NCBI RefSeq assembly: GCF_002803295.2
Contig: NZ_PGGB02000004.1
Span: forward strand, 82,265 to 101,900
Direction of reading: 5' to 3'
Origin: Caedibacter taeniospiralis
GTDB lineage: Bacteria; Pseudomonadota; Gammaproteobacteria; Francisellales; Francisellaceae
Length of the DNA stretch: 19,636 nt
Notes under the pieces: model-generated
Told to the model about the DNA's origin: nothing
Database searches by the model: none
Seen by the model: only the letters and a program-made list of their open reading frames with translations
Shown here: one piece after another, positions 2,231 to 19,411 of the stretch
How the letters are laid out: every line of letters starts with the position of its first letter
Position numbering within the stretch: the first letter of the stretch is position 1
Translations under genes and position numbers: made by a program

Positions 2231-2458
2231 ATGATTGCAACAGTTTTTAAAAATGGGAATAGTCAAGCAGTGCGAATACCAAAGGCTTTACAGATTCACA
2301 CTAACAAGGTCGACATCACTAAAGTAGGTAGTGCATTAGTTATCAGAGAACTCCCTCAATCCTGGGATGAGGCATTTCAGTGCTTAAGTGAATTTGAAGA
2401 TTTCATGATTGAGGGAAAAAGTGATTTTCCTCCACAAACTCGAGAAGAATTTAAGTGA
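2231..2458 (+). CDS. vapB: VapB-type antitoxin (SpoVT/AbrB-like DNA-binding domain)
   Basis: The N-terminus MIATVFKNGNSQAVRIPKAL is the classical AbrB/MazE swapped-hairpin motif. GGAG at 2219-2222 lies 8 nt before ATG 2231, whereas the track ORF starts at GTG 2222. The stop overlaps the downstream PIN gene start (GTGA, 2455-2458). Confidence 0.85.
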   Translation: MIATVFKNGNSQAVRIPKALQIHTNKVDITKVGSALVIRELPQSWDEAFQCLSEFEDFMIEGKSDFPPQTREEFK

Positions 2459-2880
2459 TTAAATCAATGCTTGATACAAACATTTGTATTTTTATTATCA
2501 ATGAACGCCCTCCAATGGTGCTTGAAAGGCTAAAAGAATATAGATTCAACGAAATTGCCATATCTTCTATCGTCTACTCTGAACTAGCCTATGGCGCCTA
2601 CAAAAGCAAAAAAATAGATAAGAATATTGCAGCCCTTGCAGGTTTTGTTGCTCCACTATCAATCCTGAGCTTTGATAAAAACGCTGCCAACGAATATGGC
2701 ATCATACGATCCTCACTTGAATACCAAGGTCAGCTCATTGGGGCTAATGACCTATTGATAGCCGCACATGCAAAGAGCATGGATGTACCACTTATCACAA
2801 ATAACCTTAAGGAATTTAGCAGAGTTGAAGGACTAACGGTTATTGATTGGACCAAAACCACAACCCGCTCGAGAATTTAG
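2455..2880 (+). CDS. vapC: VapC-type PIN-domain toxin (ribonuclease)
   Basis: MLDTNICIF (first acidic PIN residue) near the N-terminus, a second acidic block SELAYG, and a C-terminal IGANDLLIAAHA..PLITNN. It is translationally coupled to vapB. The start is either GTG 2455 or ATG 2467. Confidence 0.85.
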   Translation: MIKSMLDTNICIFIINERPPMVLERLKEYRFNEIAISSIVYSELAYGAYKSKKIDKNIAALAGFVAPLSILSFDKNAANEYGIIRSSLEYQGQLIGANDLLIAAHAKSMDVPLITNNLKEFSRVEGLTVIDWTKTTTRSRI

Positions 2881-4326: not shown

Positions 4327-5679
4327 TTAATCGTTGTGTAGCTTGGCAAACAAATCATGCTCATTAGCATCAGTGATGGTAACATTGACAAATAAGCCTT
4401 TGGCGATTGAACCGTTATGGCTATTGATGTTTTCAATAATGACTACACCATCGACTTCAGGAGCATCATATTGTGTTCGCGCCAGAGCAATATTTTCATC
4501 CGTGCGTATTTCATCAATAATCACTTTTTGTGTCGTGCCAATATGTCGCTTTAAACGCCTGGCACTGATGCGTGATTGTATCACCATAAAGCGCTCCAGG
4601 CGCTCTTGCTTAAGCTCTTTAGAAACCAGATTGGGGAAGCTATTGGCCTTGGCTCCTTCCACTTCAGAATAAGTAAAACAGCCAACCCGATCAAGCTCGG
4701 CTTCTTTGAGAAAGTTAAGCAGTTCAGTAAAATCTTCCTCGGTTTCACCAGGAAAGCCAATAATAAACGTGCTGCGAATCGTTAAATCAGGACATATTGT
4801 GCGCCAACGCTTAATCGCTTCCAGCGTATTAGTAGCATTGGCGGGGCGCTTCATCAGTTTCAAGATGCGTGCTGAGGCATGTTGAAAAGGAATATCCAGA
4901 TAAGGTGTAATTTTGCCTTCTGCCATCAGCGGAATAACCTTATCGACATGTGGATAAGGATAAACATAGTGCATACGCACCCAGACGCCCAATGTCGAGA
5001 GCGCCTCTGCCAAATCAATAAAACGGCTTTGATAAACCTGGTTATTCCATTGGGCTTCGGCGTATTTAATATCAACACCATACGCACTTGTGTCTTGTGA
5101 GATCACAAGGAGCTCCTTAACGCCTGCATTGACAAGGCGTTTTGCCTCAAGCATCACATCATCAATTTTGCGTGAGTTTAATTTGCCACGAATATCGGGA
5201 ATAATGCAAAAGGTGCAGCTGTTATTGCAACCTTCAGAAATTTTAAGATAGGCATAATGGCGTGGTGTGAGCTTAATGCCCTGGGCGGGGATTAATGAAG
5301 TAAAGGCATGATGTTCAATGGGCAGATTTTCATGTACTGCTTTGACCAGATTTTCATAGTCTTGAGGTCCTGAAATGCCAAGGACATTGGGGTATTTTTC
5401 TAAGATCATCTCTGACTTTTTACCCAAACATCCTGTAACCAGTACTTTGCCGTTCTCATCCAAAGCCTCACCAATCGCTTCTAAGGACTCTTCAATTGCG
5501 GAATTTAAAAAACCGCAGGTATTAACAACCACTAAATCAGCATGGCTATAATCAGCGGCAATTTCATAACCATCTGTTTTTAGTTTTGTAATAATGCGTT
5601 CAGAGTCAACTAAATTTTTAGGACAGCCAAGACTTACAAAGCCTATTTTTGGGGCGTTTATCTGCATAATGATACTCAT
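4327..5679 (-). CDS. rimO: Ribosomal protein S12 (D88) methylthiotransferase RimO
   Basis: [32 protein letters not shown] (UPF0004 domain). A radical-SAM CxxxCxxC site ([13 protein letters not shown]). A C-terminal TRAM-like domain. Closely matches E. coli RimO from memory. Confidence 0.9.
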
Positions 5680-12040: not shown

Positions 12041-12793
12041 TTAATTGAACCGAGGTGTTTTGCCGTTAAATACATCCACAATGGCATCAATAATCTTCCA
12101 GCCTTGTTTACGAGCAGTCGATAGTAAAGTACGAATACGCACAAATTTCTGGGCCCCAGCCTCACTACGAAAGCAACCCGAAACTTTTTGCTTTACCTTC
12201 ATCATACGCAAGTCATTCTCCGCTTGATTATTGGTAAATGGCACCTTAGCATCATAAATAAATCTCAATACCTCAGCTTTATAATCACCTAAGCGTTTTT
12301 GAGTCGATGCGATAACCAGTCTCATCCAAGTGCTTCACAGGCGCATTTTTAAGTCTCGCCAATATCTCTTGCTCAAACTCAATCAGCTGATCAGTACACG
12401 TTTGACCAGATTCGGCAATACTCGCCGTTGCCACACAAACACCAAATAAATCTTCTAACAGTTGTTGGACTCGTTGCTCAGGAATAAAATGTTGGGTTTG
12501 CAAATGCGTCGCATAGCTTTTATTAGGACGTACAAACCATCGCTTGAAGGCGGTTTTGAACTGTTGCGACTATTCTTAGAATAGCCGCTTCTTAAGTTGC
12601 TCAATCTCCTCTTTTAGTCGAGCATTTTCACGCTCAAGCGCGTCGATTCTGGTTAATAGCTCTTGAATCATTTTTTTCTAGGATCGTGTCCATTGGTAAG
12701 ATTACGCCATACTTATTTGCAAATGAAAATACCTGATCTGGAAAAAATGCCAAAATTCATCATCTATCAAAATTTAACCTGCTGGGTGGTTAC
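12041..12793 (-). pseudogene. Decayed IS66-family transposase (single-ORF type) with internal deletions; possible left terminal repeat
   Basis: Three collinear pieces lie on the minus strand:
- 12576-12671 encodes MIQELLTRIDALERENARLKEEIEQLKKRLF*, the N-terminal leucine zipper typical of IS66 TnpC.
- 12285-12569 contains ..HFIPEQRVQQLLEDLFGV...[11 protein letters not shown], the block just before the DDE domain.
- 12041-12325 encodes ...[46 protein letters not shown], the IS66 C-terminal domain.
The zinc-finger and DDE catalytic regions are missing. The complement of 12769-12793 begins GTAACCACCCAGCAGG, resembling the GTAA-type IS66 end; this is tentative. No right end was found. Confidence 0.75.
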
Positions 12794-12850: not shown

Positions 12851-12969
12851 ATACCTGATGATGTTCTACTTTCACATGGCGAATGCCACACTATCATCGA
12901 CGCTAACTGTTTTCACTTCTGAGTTCGGAATGGAATCAGGTGGTTCACAGTCGCTATTTTCATCAGGTA
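12851..12969 (-). rRNA. rrf: 5S rRNA
   Basis: The reverse complement reads TACCTGATGAAAATAGCGACTGTGAACCACCTGATTCCATTCCGAACTCAGAAGTGAAA...GTAGAACATCATCAGGTAT. The terminal helix pairs and the CCGAACTCAGAAGTGAAA block is universal. Confidence 0.95.
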
Positions 12970-13107
12970 ACCTGCGAGCAGAAAGCTCTAACAATCTATC
13001 ATAGAGTAATAACCAAGTCTCTCGGGCAATTAGTACTGGTTAGCTTCATACATTACTGCACTTCTACAGCCAGCCTATCAACGTCGTAGTCTTCAACAAC
13101 CCTTAAG

Positions 13108-13240
13108 CTAGAGACTAGAAACTAGAGACTAGAAACTAGAGCTTGAATCGCTTCGCGATGAATTGATTTATAAAAAACAACCCATCTTGCAAAGCAAGAC
13201 TCAACTCCTAGTTTCTAGTCTCTAGTTTCTAGTCTCTAGA
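13108..13240. mobile_element. Heptamer-armed palindromic element inserted in 23S helix 98
   Basis: Left arm CTAGAGA CTAGAAA CTAGAGA CTAGAAA CTAG (13108-13139). It is the perfect 32-nt reverse complement of the right arm (13208-13239). The core at 13141-13207 contains GAATCGCTTCGCGATGA...CCATCTTGCAAAGCAAGA. The flanks align to E. coli 23S at about 2790-2810. Confidence 0.85.
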
Positions 13241-13262
13241 CGGGAGATCTCATCTTGAGGCT

Positions 13263-13295
<33 letters not shown>

Positions 13296-13463
13296 ATTCC
13301 GAACGTAGCTACTGGGCTATGCCTCTGGCGAGACAACCCAAACACCAGCGGTTCGTTCATTCCGGTCCTCTCGTACTAGGAACAAACCCTCTCAAATCTC
13401 CTACGCCCACGGCAGATAGGGACCGAACTGTCTCACGACGTTCTAAACCCAGCTCGCGTACCA

Positions 13464-13544
<81 letters not shown>

Positions 13545-13570
13545 TCCGTCGATATGAACTCTTGGGAGGA

Positions 13571-13626
<56 letters not shown>

Positions 13627-14045
13627 AGAACCACCGGATCACTAAGACCTACTTTCGTACCTGATCGAGCCGTCACTCTCTCAGTTAAGCGCACTTTTGC
13701 CTTTATACTCTTGGCGCGATTTCCGACCGCGCCGAGTGCACCTTCGTACTCCTCCGTTACTCTTTAGGAGGAGACCGCCCCAGTCAAACTACCCACCATA
13801 CACTGTCCTCGACTCTCGTCTGAGTTAGAACTCCAAAAATATCAGGGTGGTATTTCAACGTCGACTCCTTCCATACTAGCGTACGAATCTCTTAGTCTCC
13901 CACCTATCCTACACAAATATTCTCAAAGTCCAGTGCAAAGCTATAGTAAAGGTTCACGGGGTCTTTCCGTCTAACCGCGGGTACGCTGCATCTTCACAGC
14001 GATTTCAATTTCACTGAGTCCCAGATGGAGACAGTGTGGCCATCG

Positions 14046-14127
<82 letters not shown>

Positions 14128-14149
14128 TGGGGCTTCGATCCAGAGCTTC

Positions 14150-14452
14150 TCCTACCACTTAATTACTCTGATATTTCTTCTCTTAAGCCTTTATACAACA
14201 AACTCCTCATTCGATTCGCTCGCTTTAATTTAGCTTCTCTTAACCTAGCAAGCTTTTCACTTGCGTAAGCTTCGTAGTAGACAAGAATCCAATCTCTCGT
14301 TCGGCTTGTATATCTACTTCTACCCGACTTATGCGAATCAATCCTTTTCCTTAGGTTTTCACTATAACCCACAAGTAAAAACTATCTAATTCTTTCGAAT
14401 AAATCACGTATACACAATACATATCAAACTCCAAAATAATTAAGTGGTAGGA
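14150..14452. other. 23S intervening sequence at the tip of the H68 region (about E. coli 1865-1875), carrying a GIY-YIG ORF
   Basis: A perfect 16-bp inverted repeat: TCCTACCACTTAATTA (14150-14165) and TAATTAAGTGGTAGGA (14437-14452). The flanking rRNA reads GGGGTTATCC..[insert]..GGAGAAGCTCTGGATCGAAGCCCC, against E. coli GGGGUUAGCGCAAGCGAAGCUCUUGAUCGAAGCCCC. Confidence 0.8.
14163..14422 (-). pseudogene. Small GIY-YIG nuclease-family ORF (COG2827/UPF0213-like), split by a 1-nt frameshift
   Basis: ATG 14422 is preceded by TGGAG 6 nt upstream and gives MYCVYVIYSKELDSFYL (the GIY half), then stops at 14351-14353. The -1 frame from 14372 continues VGYSENLRKRIDSHKSGRSRYTSRTRDWILVYYEAYASEKLARLREAKLKR (the YIG..R..H..G...E half). 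That second frame is the track ORF 14163-14372. Same strand as the rRNA. Confidence 0.7.
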
Positions 14453-14591
14453 TAACCCCTTCAATTAACCTTCCAGCACCGGGCAGGCGTCACACCCTAT
14501 ACTTCCTCTTCCGAGTTCGCAGAGTGCTGTGTTTTTAGTAAACAGTCGCAGCCACCTGGTATTTGCAACCTCTTCACGCTCCAGACGTTCA

Positions 14592-14691
14592 CCTGACCAC
14601 TAAATTCCACGTCCTACAACAGGCTATCAACAAATTGTCTATCTCTACAACTCTCAACAGCTTTCATCCATCATAGAATTTAGTGGTCAGG
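14592..14691. other. 23S intervening sequence in helix 63 (100 bp, no ORF)
   Basis: A perfect 16-bp inverted repeat: CCTGACCACTAAATTC (14592-14607) and GAATTTAGTGGTCAGG (14676-14691). The flanks align with the variable H63 region of E. coli 23S (about 1700-1745). Confidence 0.75.
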
Positions 14692-15245
14692 CAAGTCCTT
14701 CACCCTAATGAGGCACACCTTCTCCCGAAGTTACGGTGTCATTTTGCCTAGTTCCTTCACCTGGGTTCTCTCATCGCCTTGGTATTCTCTACCCACCCAC
14801 CAGTGTCGGTTTACAGTACGGTCAATGGTAATTTATGCTTAGAAGCTTTTCCTGGAAGCCGAGCATCAATCTCTTGGCAGAACCCCGTAGAGCCCTGTTC
14901 CCTCTCACGCCTCAGATCATCATACACCCGGATTTGCCTAAGTGCACTACCTACACGCTTTCACCTGGACTACCATCCGCCAGGCAGACCTAGCTTTCTC
15001 CGTCTCTCCATCGCAACTACCATCGGTACAGGAATATTAACCTGTTTCCCATCGACTACTCCCTTCGGATTCGCCTTAGGCGCCGACTTACCCTACGTTG
15101 ATTAACATTGCGTAGGAAACCTTGGGTTTTCGGCCAATAAGAATCTCACTTATTTATCGTTACTCATGTCAGCATTCGCACTTCTGATACCTCCAGCACA
15201 CTTCTCAATGCACCTTCATAAGCTTACAGAACGCTCCCCTACCGA

Positions 15246-15678
15246 CTAGAAACTAGATACTAGAAACTAGATACTAGAATAGACATCAGCTATATCTTCT
15301 CTGTATACCTCTTAACATTCGCCCAACTTCGCAATACCTCTCATCGTAGCCCCTATGACTCTCCTGATCGATATACCCTAAGTCCCTTGCAAAATCCAGC
15401 CACACCCGGCATTCATCGCAAGAGCCTATCGCTATCTGAACAAACCTTCTTACTTCCTTTTCACTCGCTTGCTTGCCCATCCCTTCCGCTATGTTCGCAC
15501 ATATGGATTTGCTCGCTCGCCTTAATTGACTCCCAATCTCACACTGTTCTATCCGCGGCCACTTCATACTCTCCACGTGTAGCTCCAGCGCTAACTGATA
15601 TGCCTTCTGATATACTGATAAATTGTGATACGGCATCTTATCTCCTCTAGTCTCCAGTTTCTAGTCTCTAGTCTCTAG
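15246..15678. mobile_element. 23S helix 45 intervening sequence with heptamer arms and an S23p ORF
   Basis: Left arm CTAGAAA CTAGATA CTAGAAA CTAGATA CTAGAAT (15246-15280). Right arm CTAGTCT CCAGTTT CTAGTCT CTAGTCT CTAG (15647-15678). The flanks are CACCGAAGCTGCGGGA... and ...TCGGTAGGGGAGCGTTCTGTAAGC, which is the classical H45 IVS site. Confidence 0.9.
15286..15636 (-). CDS. Four-helix-bundle protein, 23S rRNA-intervening-sequence protein family (S23p; Avd-like)
   Basis: LSVYQKAYQLALELH...WPRIEQCEIGSQLRRASKSICANIAEGMGKQASEKEVRRFVQIAIGSCDECRVWLDFARDLGYI matches the family pattern (VWQKA..L...IY...FP..E...L..Q.RRAA.SI..NIAEG..R....E...FL.IA.GS..E....L..A..LGY). A strong GAGGAG lies 6 nt before the ATG. 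Same strand as the rRNA. Confidence 0.9.
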   Translation of the reverse strand: MPYHNLSVYQKAYQLALELHVESMKWPRIEQCEIGSQLRRASKSICANIAEGMGKQASEKEVRRFVQIAIGSCDECRVWLDFARDLGYIDQESHRGYDERYCEVGRMLRGIQRRYS

Positions 15679-15734
15679 TCCCGCAGCTTCGGTGTATCGC
15701 TTAGCCCCGTTAAATCTTTCGCGCAGGCCGACTC

Positions 15735-15798
<64 letters not shown>

Positions 15799-15833
15799 AT
15801 GCCTTCCCACATCGTTTCCCACTTAGCGATAAC

Positions 15834-15871
<38 letters not shown>

Positions 15872-16291
15872 CCACGACGGACCTTAGCACCCGCCGTGTG
15901 TCTCCCGTGATTCAACTTCGTCGTATTCTAAGTTTGCATCGAGTCGGTAAGATCGCAAAATCCCCCTAGTCGAAACAGTGCTTTACCCCAACGAGTCATT
16001 CACAAGGCACTACCTAAATAGTTTTCGGGGAGAACCAGCTATCTCCGCGCTTGATTAGCCTTTCACTCCGATCCACAACTCATCCCATAATTTTGCAACA
16101 TTACCGGGTTCGGTCCTCCAGTTGGTGTTACCCAACCTTCAACCTGGTCATGGATAGATCGCGTCGGTTTCGGGTCTACTCCTAGCGACTGTCCGCTCTA
16201 TTAAAACTCGCTTTCGCTACGGATCCCTTATTCAGTTATCCTCGCCACTAAAAGTAACTCGCTGACCCATTATACAAAAGGTACGCCATCA

Positions 16292-16436
16292 CTAGTCTCC
16301 TAGAAACTAGAAACTAGAGACTAGAAACCAGGAGTCGTATCTTGCTTTGCAAGATGATTTATTTTTGTAAATTAATCATCGCGAAGCGCTTCAACCCCTA
16401 ATCTCTAGTCTCTAGTTTCTAGTCTCTAGTTTCTAG
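16292..16436. mobile_element. Heptamer-armed palindromic element inserted in 23S helix 25
   Basis: Left arm CTAGTCT C CTAGAAA CTAGAAA CTAGAGA CTAGAAA (16292-16327). Right arm CTAATCT CTAGTCT CTAGTTT CTAGTCT CTAGTTT CTAG (16398-16436). The core at 16328-16397 is the reverse complement of the H98 core type. The flanks are GCGTACAAGCAGTCAGAG... and ...GATGGCGTACCTTTTGTATAATGG, which is the H25 IVS site. Confidence 0.85.
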
Positions 16437-16768
16437 CTCTGACTGCTTGTACGCAAACGGTTTCAGGTTCTATTTCACTCCCCTCATCGGGGTTCTTTTC
16501 GCCTTTCCCTCACGGTACTGGTTCACTATCGGTCAGTCAGTAGTATTTAGCCTTGGAGGATGGTCCCCCCTTCTTCAAACAGGATTTCTCGTGTCCCGCC
16601 CTACTTATTCGTATACCTAGTTCCACATCCAAGCTTTCGTCTACAGGACTATCACCTGCTATGGTCATCCTTCCCAGAATGTTCGACTAACTCACATGCT
16701 AAAGTATACCAGGCTCTTCCCCCTTCGCTCGCCGCTACTTAGGGAATCTCGGTTGATTTCTTTTCCTA

Positions 16769-16799
<31 letters not shown>

Positions 16800-16870
16800 C
16801 GCCTCACTTAACTTACGTCAGTGATACCCCACTCTTAAAATACTCATTCATGCACAAATTACACCCTCTA

Positions 16871-16943
16871 CTCACTCTAGTTTCTAGTTTCCAATCTCTA
16901 GTTTCTCGAAATGAATAAAGTGCTGAGCACTTTATGAGTGAGG
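16871..16943. repeat. Insert in 23S domain I (H9/H10 area) containing a solo heptamer arm
   Basis: CTCACTC (16871-16877) pairs with GAGTGAG (16937-16943). Inside are CTAGTTT CTAGTTT CCAATCT CTAGTTT (16877-16904) and a small hairpin AAAGTGC-TGA-GCACTTT. No complementary heptamer arm is present. The region is about 90 nt longer than E. coli 23S at about 130-180. Confidence 0.6.
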
Positions 16944-17089
16944 TGGGTTCCCCCATTCAGATATCTTCGGATCAATGCTTATTTGCCAGCTCCCCGAAGC
17001 TTTTCGCAGGCTATCACGTCTTTCCTCGCCTCTGACTGCCAAGGCATCCGCCGTTTGCGCTTATTCTCTTGGTCATTACTCTATAATAA

Positions 17090-17102: not shown

Positions 17103-17107
17103 TCGGC

Positions 17108-17249
17108 TCTAGATACTAGAACGCTCGCTGCGCTTACTCTAGAAACTAGAAACCAGACTCGAATCGCTTCGCGATGATTCATTTAAAAAATCATCTCGCA
17201 CAGCAAGATTCAATCCCTAGTTTCTAGTCTCTTGACACTAGTCTCTAGA
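17108..17249. mobile_element. Heptamer-armed element, spacer copy a (tRNA-Ala to 23S)
   Basis: 142 bp, identical by eye to 17326-17467. Outer arms TCTAGATACTAGA / TAGTCTCTAGA. Inner arms CTAGAAACTAGAAACC / CCCTAGTTTCTAGTCTC. Core GAATCGCTTCGCGATGATTCATTTAAAAAATCATCTCGCACAGCAAGATTC. Confidence 0.85.
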
Positions 17250-17325
17250 TGGTGGAGCCAAGGAGGATCGAACTCCTGACCTCCTGCGTGCAAAGCAGGC
17301 GCTCTCCCAGCTGAGCTATGGCCCC
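17250..17325 (-). tRNA. tRNA-Ala (anticodon TGC), CCA encoded
   Basis: The reverse complement is GGGGCCATAGCTCAGCTGGGAGAGCGCCTGCTTTGCACGCAGGAGGTCAGGAGTTCGATCCTCCTTGGCTCCACCA. It has the G3:U70 identity pair and a cloverleaf very close to E. coli tRNA-Ala(UGC). Confidence 0.97.
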
Positions 17326-17467
17326 TCTAGATACTAGAACGCTCGCTGCGCTTACTCTAGAAACTAGAAACCAGACTCGAATCGCTTCGCGATGATTCAT
17401 TTAAAAAATCATCTCGCACAGCAAGATTCAATCCCTAGTTTCTAGTCTCTTGACACTAGTCTCTAGA
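17326..17467. mobile_element. Heptamer-armed element, spacer copy b (tRNA-Ile to tRNA-Ala)
   Basis: Identical to 17108-17249. It lies directly 3' of the tRNA-Ile CCA end in the transcript. Confidence 0.85.
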
Positions 17468-17544
<77 letters not shown>

Positions 17545-17545
17545 A

Positions 17546-17658
17546 CTAGATACTAGAGACTAGAGACTAGTTTCTAGAAGTATTCTAGTTTCTAGTCTCT
17601 AGTCTCTAGTCTCTAGTTTCTAGTTTCTAGTTTCTAGTCTCTAGTTTCTAGTCTCTAG
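17546..17658. repeat. Core-less heptamer array between 16S and tRNA-Ile
   Basis: CTAGATA CTAGAGA CTAGAGA CTAG (17546-17570), then TTTCTAG AAGTATT, then ten consecutive 7-bp units CTAGTTT/CTAGTCT starting at 17585, 17592 ... 17648, closed by CTAG (17655-17658). Confidence 0.9.
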
Positions 17659-17775
17659 AAAAAACATCATTTGTAAACACTCAAATACTTCTCGCTCTTT
17701 CTTAATTTCTTTCGTACTTCAAACATCAAAAATTCAACATTCAACATTAAAAATTCAACATCATACTCGTACCTT

Positions 17776-19411
<1,636 letters not shown>

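Follow-up and report, generated by a model that had tools for sequence, protein, structure and literature searches.

In the gammaproteobacterium Caedibacter taeniospiralis, which lives as an endosymbiont in Paramecium, the 23S rRNA gene is interrupted at the tip of helix 68 (H68) by an insert that we identify with high confidence as an intervening sequence (IVS) bearing a pseudogenised open reading frame (ORF) for a GIY-YIG nuclease. The insert lies in a 19.6-kb window of the genome (the whole stretch of DNA analyzed, 19,636 nt of contig NZ_PGGB02000004.1), in which all genes of the rRNA operon are located on the minus strand. Coordinates are summarized in Table 1. The window also encodes RimO (4327-5679, minus strand), which is 100% identical to RimO of C. 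taeniospiralis, the next-best matches being Cysteiniphilum (88%), followed by Fastidiosibacter, Fangia, and Francisella. Taken as a whole, our reading of the ORF-bearing H68 IVS as a selfish mini-element specialized on stable-RNA genes is a probable one.

The 23S gene is 4066 nt long, exceeding the E. coli gene by ~1140 nt. In a local alignment made with cmscan, a 298-nt insertion falls at the tip of the H68 hairpin, at Rfam model position ~1895, and a MAFFT alignment against E. coli 23S (reference L017:847-3750) places 293 nt after position 1867, where the H68 tetraloop 1869-1872 would be. Both the covariance model and the pairwise alignment agree with the initial annotation, which had described a 303-bp insert at the H68 tip around E. 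coli positions 1865-1875. The closing pairs are alike in the two organisms (UAUCC-GUAA-GGAGA in an E. coli rrl copy and UAUCC-insert-GGAGA in the window), and the H68 loop has thus been cleanly replaced. In its position at a helix tip and in the replacement of the loop, the insert resembles RNase III-type IVSs. We found no literature report of an IVS at helix 68 in bacteria, nor any on inserts in the 23S gene of Caedibacter.

The insert is closed by a perfect 16-bp inverted repeat between positions 14150-14165 (TCCTACCACTTAATTA) and 14437-14452, as initially annotated, and no 16-bp inverted repeat within 500 nt occurred in 20 shuffles of the window. RNA folding extends this stem to ~22 bp by means of G-U pairs, with a z-score of -6.85 for the insert against shuffles, so that the closing stem has the length, about two helical turns, of those of RNase III-type IVSs. 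Nearly the whole loop is a single ORF in the rRNA sense, of 85 codons once repaired, leaving ~40 nt of the insert noncoding. The ORF has its own start codon and, as had been noted from the sequence alone, its own Shine-Dalgarno sequence; the first two G of the Shine-Dalgarno sequence (14431-14432) are paired in the extended stem. Within the ORF we detected one weak promoter-like match, and the number of such matches in the region is not above that in shuffles.

Homologues of the encoded protein were found by a word-indexed protein search, which yielded two intact 85-aa homologues (84% and 77% identity) as well as the same truncated 69-aa product as in the window. All of these are encoded in 23S genes, at exactly the H68 place occupied in the window. 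Relatives with an intact ORF, which the initial annotation had proposed to look for, are therefore at hand: L001 (GCA_052030555.1), L002 (a marine metagenome sequence from a distant marine gammaproteobacterium), and L039 and L040 (Cysteiniphilum litorale, GGG08527.1, and GCA_003428165.1). That C. litorale is a carrier was learned from a protein-cluster look-up. Alignment with these four sequences shows that the reading frame in the window is broken by an insertion of two nucleotides (ttgTGggt versus ttgggt), and not by the 1-nt frame change near 14372 that had been suggested. The resulting 5' fragment corresponds to residues 1-17 of intact homologues. L003, a second assembly (JACCEA011279781.1) whose H68 insert is identical to that of the window, has this TG as well. 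An assembly error was considered as the source of the frameshift and rejected, since L003 is an independent contig with a different internal transcribed spacer (ITS) and a different insert in helix 25 (H25); the frameshift is thus real and shared. The view of a nuclease gene in decay was accordingly confirmed, the gene being broken by TG in this genome and intact in relatives. The TG insertion in Caedibacter is too recent for any signature of relaxed constraint to have arisen.

Group I introns are well known to carry GIY-YIG genes, and a degenerate intron of this type, or else a sequencing artefact, could in principle be invoked for the insert. Both are extremely improbable. The noncoding part is too short for a ribozyme core, as stated initially, and Rfam searches gave no Intron_gpI match at the gathering threshold and no match of any kind at E<=10 on the insert alone, while the artefact is contradicted by the recurrence of TG in L003.

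The assignment of the cargo to a small UPF0213-like GIY-YIG protein was substantiated by profile searches. The repaired ORF matches PF01541 with E=9.5e-14 and 51.9 bits (cut-off 22.6), and the 69-aa fragment by itself gives E=2.4e-9. The catalytic residues Y5, Y16, R26, H30, and E62 are conserved, the frameshift having split off the first strand in the window, and the repaired window ORF retains every residue that is invariant over 104 family members (Y5, G18, R26, H30, W44, E62, and K66). When a profile of 13 relatives was compared with PDB sequences, BH0048 (1ZG2; 4e-11) and EF2693 (1YWL; 9e-11) were retrieved, and Slx1 at ~2e-3. An AlphaFold2 model of an intact homologue (pLDDT 95.9) has a beta-beta-alpha-beta-alpha-alpha fold and no extra domain. 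In Foldseek, 1ZG2 is the top match to this model, followed by Slx1 nuclease domains (TM 0.64-0.69, rmsd ~2.2 A), whereas the catalytic domain of I-TevI reaches a TM of 0.42-0.48 only. UPF0213 proteins are thus the nearest neighbours in both sequence and fold, but identity to them is only ~33% and no NCBIfam model is matched by the H68 protein. To our knowledge, no UPF0213 protein has been reported to be encoded within a stable-RNA gene. The model and the profiles describe a minimal standalone Slx1/UPF0213-like GIY-YIG protein that is predicted to consist of an 85-aa catalytic domain alone and falls in the Slx1-like branch previously recognized by Dunin-Horkawicz et al. (PMC1564403); BH0048 and EF2693 are likewise bare GIY-YIG domains without auxiliary domains. 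As fold and sequence are closest to UPF0213/Slx1 and an auxiliary domain is lacking, the protein is not a modular homing endonuclease.

The intact copies indicate that this protein has been under selection. Across three lineages, the ratio of nonsynonymous to synonymous substitution rates (dN/dS) is 0.16-0.19 at dS of 0.46-1.09, with most differences in third codon positions, and purifying selection in the relatives points to a GIY-YIG protein that is, or recently was, functional. The C. litorale rrn contig (L039) has inserts as in the window, near E. coli 131-177 and in H25, H45, H68, and H98. Since this set of inserts is common to Caedibacter and Cysteiniphilum, the H68 insert is most simply explained by vertical inheritance within the clade. 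The marine L002 is far more distant: over ~555 nt upstream of the insert, its 23S gene is 76.9% identical to those of Caedibacter and Cysteiniphilum, and over the same region identity to E. coli is 74.7% for the window and 80.5% for L002. One cassette thus occupies one site in hosts separated by roughly the distance between Caedibacter and E. coli.

The arms of the closing stem are identical in all six element sequences (the window, L001, L002, L003, L039, and L040), and the ~40 nt of arms and leader differ by one substitution, in the leader, with ORF divergence reaching 24%. The arm pairs are kept in sequence, without compensatory changes. As both arms are frozen in this manner, it appears that the sequence itself is read by something, and not the pairing alone. 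Such freezing is no general property of IVS stems in these bacteria, because the stems of the H45 IVS are fully different between the two genera, with CTAG heptads in Caedibacter and the different heptad CAGARRA in Cysteiniphilum. By analogy, we infer that the host-invariant arms behave like terminal repeats recognized by the element's own enzyme; this idea is drawn from the parallel with transposases and their terminal repeats, and with the Ssn nucleases discussed below. Strict conservation without compensatory changes would also fit a contact with the ribosome, and the stem continues H68 coaxially, as might be expected of an expansion segment that stays in mature 23S rRNA, its ORF being a passenger translated only from the precursor or never. 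We consider a retained segment quite unlikely, because a perfect duplex of 16-22 bp is the type of substrate cut by RNase III in other IVSs (PMC4990558, PMC2672173), long-stem inserts of the type seen in excised IVSs abound elsewhere in the operon, and the loop evolves as a protein-coding gene and not as structural rRNA.

The H68 protein belongs to a very large family: at least 7,638 clusters were returned at E<=1e-8 by a word-indexed search, and 7,078 representatives at E<=1e-10 when a library clustered at 50% identity was searched exhaustively. Its members come mainly from Patescibacteria, Bacteroidota, and Ignavibacteria, and most of the 150 best relatives measure 80-125 aa. Genomic context was inspected for 21 distinct members. 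Neighbour joining places P0237 (51% identity) as sister to the Caedibacter-type clade; the P0237 ORF lies inside an H25 insert in the 23S gene of another bacterium (L019:111-406, ENA ERZ27297863 k141_158496) and runs through the 3' arm of that insert. The stem that closes the P0237 insert, 14 bp without mismatch (CCCCTCACCACTTT/AAAGTGGTGAGGGG), shares a CCT(C)ACCACTT core with the window arm, its core CCTCACCACTT resembling CCTACCACTT in the latter. Fifteen of the 21 members adjoin a tRNA or tmRNA gene on the same strand. In ten of these, a tRNA gene for Ser, Arg, Thr, or Asn follows, with the end of the ORF anywhere from 22 nt short of the tRNA 5' end to 38 nt into the gene, and in the other five the ORF starts 26-153 nt past a tRNA or tmRNA gene. 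Five of the 21 are without a stable-RNA neighbour, among them L021, where the contig end is too near the ORF to tell.

These cassettes are ~300-400 bp long with GIY-YIG genes of ~80-90 aa, and several of the ORFs extend into the tRNA gene. In eight of the ten loci with a downstream tRNA, a copy of its 5'-terminal 13-36 nt is found 45-95 nt upstream of the ORF, and in three of the five with an upstream tRNA or tmRNA, a copy of its 3'-terminal 19-23 nt is found downstream of the ORF. The copies are exact or near-exact, with alignment scores of 13-55 against a shuffle maximum of 10.5. In one metagenomic population (L022, L023, and L026, from JGI), one, two, or three cassettes are stacked before tRNA-Ser(UGA); they are of two types (43% amino acid identity), with a 14- or 36-nt piece of tRNA behind each, and this stacking suggests repeated insertion at one target. 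Judged from these sequences, the tRNA and tmRNA cassettes appear to be footprints of DNA-level insertion with regeneration of the RNA gene, and the insertion looks site-specific. In Candidate Phyla Radiation (CPR) cassettes, a conserved hairpin (T)CCGCC-N3-4-GGCGG(A) is located 29-44 nt 5' of the ATG, after the tRNA remnant where one was detected. It is found in 8 of 23 loci, in several CPR lineages, against a background of 0.07 per kb. We found no description in the literature of GIY-YIG cassettes in tRNA genes or of a stable-RNA habit of this kind.

The initial annotation had proposed that the IVS spreads by DNA-level homing. Movement at the DNA level is favoured by the presence of the same cassette with the same arms at the same site in a host with a 77% identical 23S flank, by the sister ORF in an H25 insert with similar arms, and by the tRNA and tmRNA cassettes with duplicated ends. 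Homing of the I-TevI type was not borne out, nor does the insert appear to spread other than vertically within Caedibacter and Cysteiniphilum. In the classical form of homing, the GIY-YIG protein would cut rDNA with an empty H68 tip (GGGGTTATCCGTAAGGAGAAGC), and the IVS would pass to other rrn copies and other strains as the break is repaired from a filled copy. The domain itself, the constancy of the site despite the divergent flanks, highly conserved rRNA flanks that make a good target, and the occurrence of intact and decayed copies, which resembles the life cycle of homing endonucleases, are all in keeping with this. Like I-TevI-type enzymes and the free-standing Seg enzymes of phage T4, the H68 element has a GIY-YIG domain encoded within a conserved host gene or cluster. 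It differs from them in having no ribozyme, linker, or DNA-binding domain, the 85-aa protein being all catalytic domain where I-TevI has a tethered DNA-binding domain, and in its greater likeness to Slx1/UPF0213. Further, the arms of the element are conserved and not the target alone, within the family the insert is passed on together with the others, and the authors of a CPR survey place their own rRNA-borne GIY-YIG ORFs outside homing (PMC11270868). We therefore regard classical homing as unlikely.

A way in which a domain-only nuclease could be site-specific is plausibly provided by the Ssn enzymes of family cd10448, which bind hairpin repeats flanking their own gene in single-stranded DNA (ssDNA) and cut beside them (Chenal et al. 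2025, PMC11893778). As in Ssn, a single-domain GIY-YIG protein (~90 aa in size and within the limit of 150 aa) is encoded by a gene that is bracketed by inverted repeats in the manner of an insertion sequence. The H68 repeats differ in being the two arms of one hairpin, whereas NTS-ssnA-NTS has two separate hairpins. The Ssn motif SRM, searched as HGTCWYN(0-2)YYVSBRHN(0-5)WNVSBRGN(0-2)RNCYNB, had no match in the IVS with 100 nt on either side or in 23 related loci, and tRNA and rRNA genes are not mentioned in the Ssn paper. By the same analogy, the GC hairpin of the CPR cassettes may serve their nuclease for recognition, as the NTS/SRM does in Ssn.

The arms lengthen H68 coaxially, and in the mechanism that we propose the cassette would be transcribed within the pre-rRNA. 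RNase III would cut the long stem, as it does in other IVSs, removing the insert and leaving the 23S rRNA in pieces, about four of them with the H25 and H45 inserts taken into account; by comparison with those IVSs, we lean toward such an excision. The released small RNA would serve as mRNA, and processing might unmask the Shine-Dalgarno sequence by freeing its paired G. The element probably arrived in H68 through insertion at the DNA level and was then inherited vertically within the Caedibacter/Cysteiniphilum clade; more speculatively, its own arm-recognizing nuclease would have promoted that insertion. Nuclease assistance in this movement is a tentative proposal, to which we give somewhat less than even weight. 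With more doubt still, we raise the possibility that the H68 insert is one of an unrecognized class of nuclease-only mini mobile elements of ~300-400 bp. Such elements would consist of a single-domain GIY-YIG gene with short conserved hairpin or inverted-repeat ends, and would live only in stable-RNA genes, namely in rRNA helix tips (H68 and H25), in the 5' part of tRNA genes, and at the 3' termini of tRNA and tmRNA genes. Host RNase III and RNase P would render them harmless and free their mRNA, and their nuclease would recognize the element's own ends, probably as ssDNA hairpins like those of Ssn, and would drive insertion in a way that restores the RNA gene.

Several observations weigh against the reading of the insert as a mobile selfish element. 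The conservation of the arms could reflect a constraint internal to the ribosome or imposed by RNA processing. No target duplication was found at H68, where the insert ends align with the rRNA flanks no better than shuffles, and in this the insert differs from the tRNA cassettes. The element is also rare: a metagenome scan with a 22-mer covering arm and Shine-Dalgarno sequence returned the known contig only, a scan of GTDB species genomes gave only distant relatives (32-49% identity), none of them in rRNA, and a scan of viral contigs gave no match. In Coxiella, the ORF of an IVS is apparently not translated in vivo (PMC4990558); this is countered by the purifying selection in the relatives of the H68 ORF, which suggests that the protein is made there. 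Finally, no copies of the arm motif other than the two arms are present in the 19.6-kb window. This last result also speaks against a domesticated host nuclease, for instance an Ssn-like ssDNA nuclease acting in recombination or DNA uptake that would gain strong, growth-coupled expression from the rRNA operon. Purifying selection in three lineages would be expected of such a gene, but in Caedibacter a frameshift has destroyed it and nothing appears to have taken its place, the SRM motif of Ssn is absent, and the many stable-RNA positions with target duplications look mobile and not fixed. We judge domestication to be improbable.

A nuclease gene in a non-intron rRNA insert is already known and hence not a new idea. 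In the CPR survey, 30 PF01541 ORFs were found in non-intron rRNA insertions, 15 in 16S and 15 in 23S genes (Tsurumaki et al. 2024, PMC11270868), bearing out an earlier report (reference 2 therein), and the authors doubted that these ORFs are engaged in homing. The H68 ORF is similar in being a PF01541 ORF in an rRNA insertion of at least 100 bp without group I or II intron signature. Its hosts, however, are gammaproteobacteria (a Paramecium endosymbiont and free-living relatives), the H68 tip was not found among the sites named in that survey, and arm invariance and purifying selection, seen here, were not analyzed in it. Among IVSs, the closest comparison is the helix 45 IVS of Coxiella, which carries an S23p/23S_rRNA_IVP ORF in decay and is excised by RNase III (PMC4990558); the H25 and H45 IVSs of Salmonella are likewise cut by RNase III (summarized in PMC2672173). 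With the Coxiella IVS the H68 insert has in common that it is hairpin-closed, located at a helix tip, and provided with an rRNA-sense ORF in the loop that decays in some lineages, but its cargo is a nuclease and not a four-helix-bundle protein, and its site is H68 and not H25 or H45. What is new is the host lineage outside the CPR, including a sequenced isolate with an intact ORF, the H68 tip as a site, the selection on both the protein and the arm sequence, and the link to a family-wide life inside stable-RNA genes.

The operon contains many other inserts. All of them share long stems of 7-nt CTAG repeats (CTAGAAACTAGAGACTAG and so on, with the complement), to which the arm sequence of H68 is unrelated; the H68 stem alone differs. 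Given the CTAG-heptad-stem insert in its helix 6, the 16S rRNA may also be processed or fragmented. A second ORF-bearing IVS is present in the same 23S gene, as the H45 insert holds an intact 116-aa 23S_rRNA_IVP (15286-15636, minus strand; PF05635, E=7e-32) with a weak bAvd-like match. The 16S-23S spacer includes a 218-nt tandem duplication of 94% identity (17107-17283 and 17325-17501), each unit of which follows one of the two tRNA genes; the L003 spacer has one tRNA only. Differences between L003 and the window cluster in the ITS, in the H25 insert, and at 13500-13900. About 66 differences fall in this last interval, corresponding roughly to E. coli 2100-2500 of 23S, in contigs that are otherwise near-identical; they may reflect copy-to-copy variation, misalignment driven by indels, or a chimeric contig end.

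Table 1. Features of the C. taeniospiralis window and loci of related GIY-YIG cassettes. MFE, minimum free energy.
Feature	Position	Strand	Remarks
16S	17776-19411	-	
16S helix 6 tip (V1), CTAG-stem insert	19215-19342	-	~109 nt; Rfam model position ~80
tRNA-Ile	17468-17544	-	
tRNA-Ala	17250-17325	-	
ITS, three CTAG-stem inserts	17139-17250, 17357-17467, 17545-17660		
23S	13009-17074	-	Rfam LSU_rRNA_bacteria, 2531 bits, model positions 1-2925
CTAG-stem insert near E. coli 171	16877-16909		
H25, CTAG-stem insert	16300-16435		
H45, CTAG-stem insert	15239-15680		
H68 IVS with closing stem	14150-14452	-	cmscan, MAFFT versus E. coli, RNA fold
Insert proper	14153-14449	-	~297 nt; takes the place of E. 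coli tetraloop 1869-1872
5' arm, rRNA sense, UCCUACCACUUAAUUA	14437-14452	-	exact reverse complement of 14150-14165
Shine-Dalgarno GGAG	14429-14432	-	6 nt 5' of ATG; kept in all relatives
Start ATG	14420-14422	-	
5' GIY-YIG fragment	14351-14422	-	after ATG MYCVYVIYSKELDSFYLWVIVKT, then stop; GIY strand; early stop caused by frameshift
TG insertion site	14370-14373	-	placement within TGTG ambiguous; breaks the frame
3' GIY-YIG fragment	14163-14372	-	69 codons from GTG in shifted frame; YIG/Arg/His/Glu
Stem extension, 3' side	14166-14171	-	6 pairs with 14431-14436, three of them G-U; MFE structure and sequence
3' arm, rRNA sense, UAAUUAAGUGGUAGGA	14150-14165	-	holds ORF stop UAA 14163-14165
H98, CTAG-stem insert	13108-13241		
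5S	12853-12967	-	
IS66-family transposase, C-terminal fragment	12041-12325	-	PF03050, E=4.5e-12; just downstream of 5S
PIN-domain (VapC-like) gene	2455-2880	+	PF01850, E=2.8e-17
Loci with tRNA downstream of ORF			L004, L005, L007, L009, L010, L012, L022, L023, L026, L028, L036, L038
Loci with tRNA or tmRNA upstream of ORF			L008, L014, L015, L016, L034
GC hairpin sites	L004:3958, L007:3970, L009:3969, L012:3957, L022:1957, L028:1962, L037:1824, L038:954		

The origin and spread of rRNA IVSs have been an open question since their discovery. The H68 IVS unites a protein under selection, arms that are frozen across distant hosts, and relatives inserted at the DNA level, and it links the rRNA-borne GIY-YIG ORFs, so far seen only in CPR, with single-domain nucleases of the Ssn type. 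With an insert at H68, the 23S gene is longer and its rRNA probably in fragments, which affects rRNA annotation, RNA integrity scoring, and primer design for these symbionts and pathogens. As C. litorale has been isolated and sequenced and has an intact ORF, these ideas are testable. For a very large family, of ~7,000 clusters at 50% identity and E<=1e-10, the results suggest that stable-RNA genes are a habitat.

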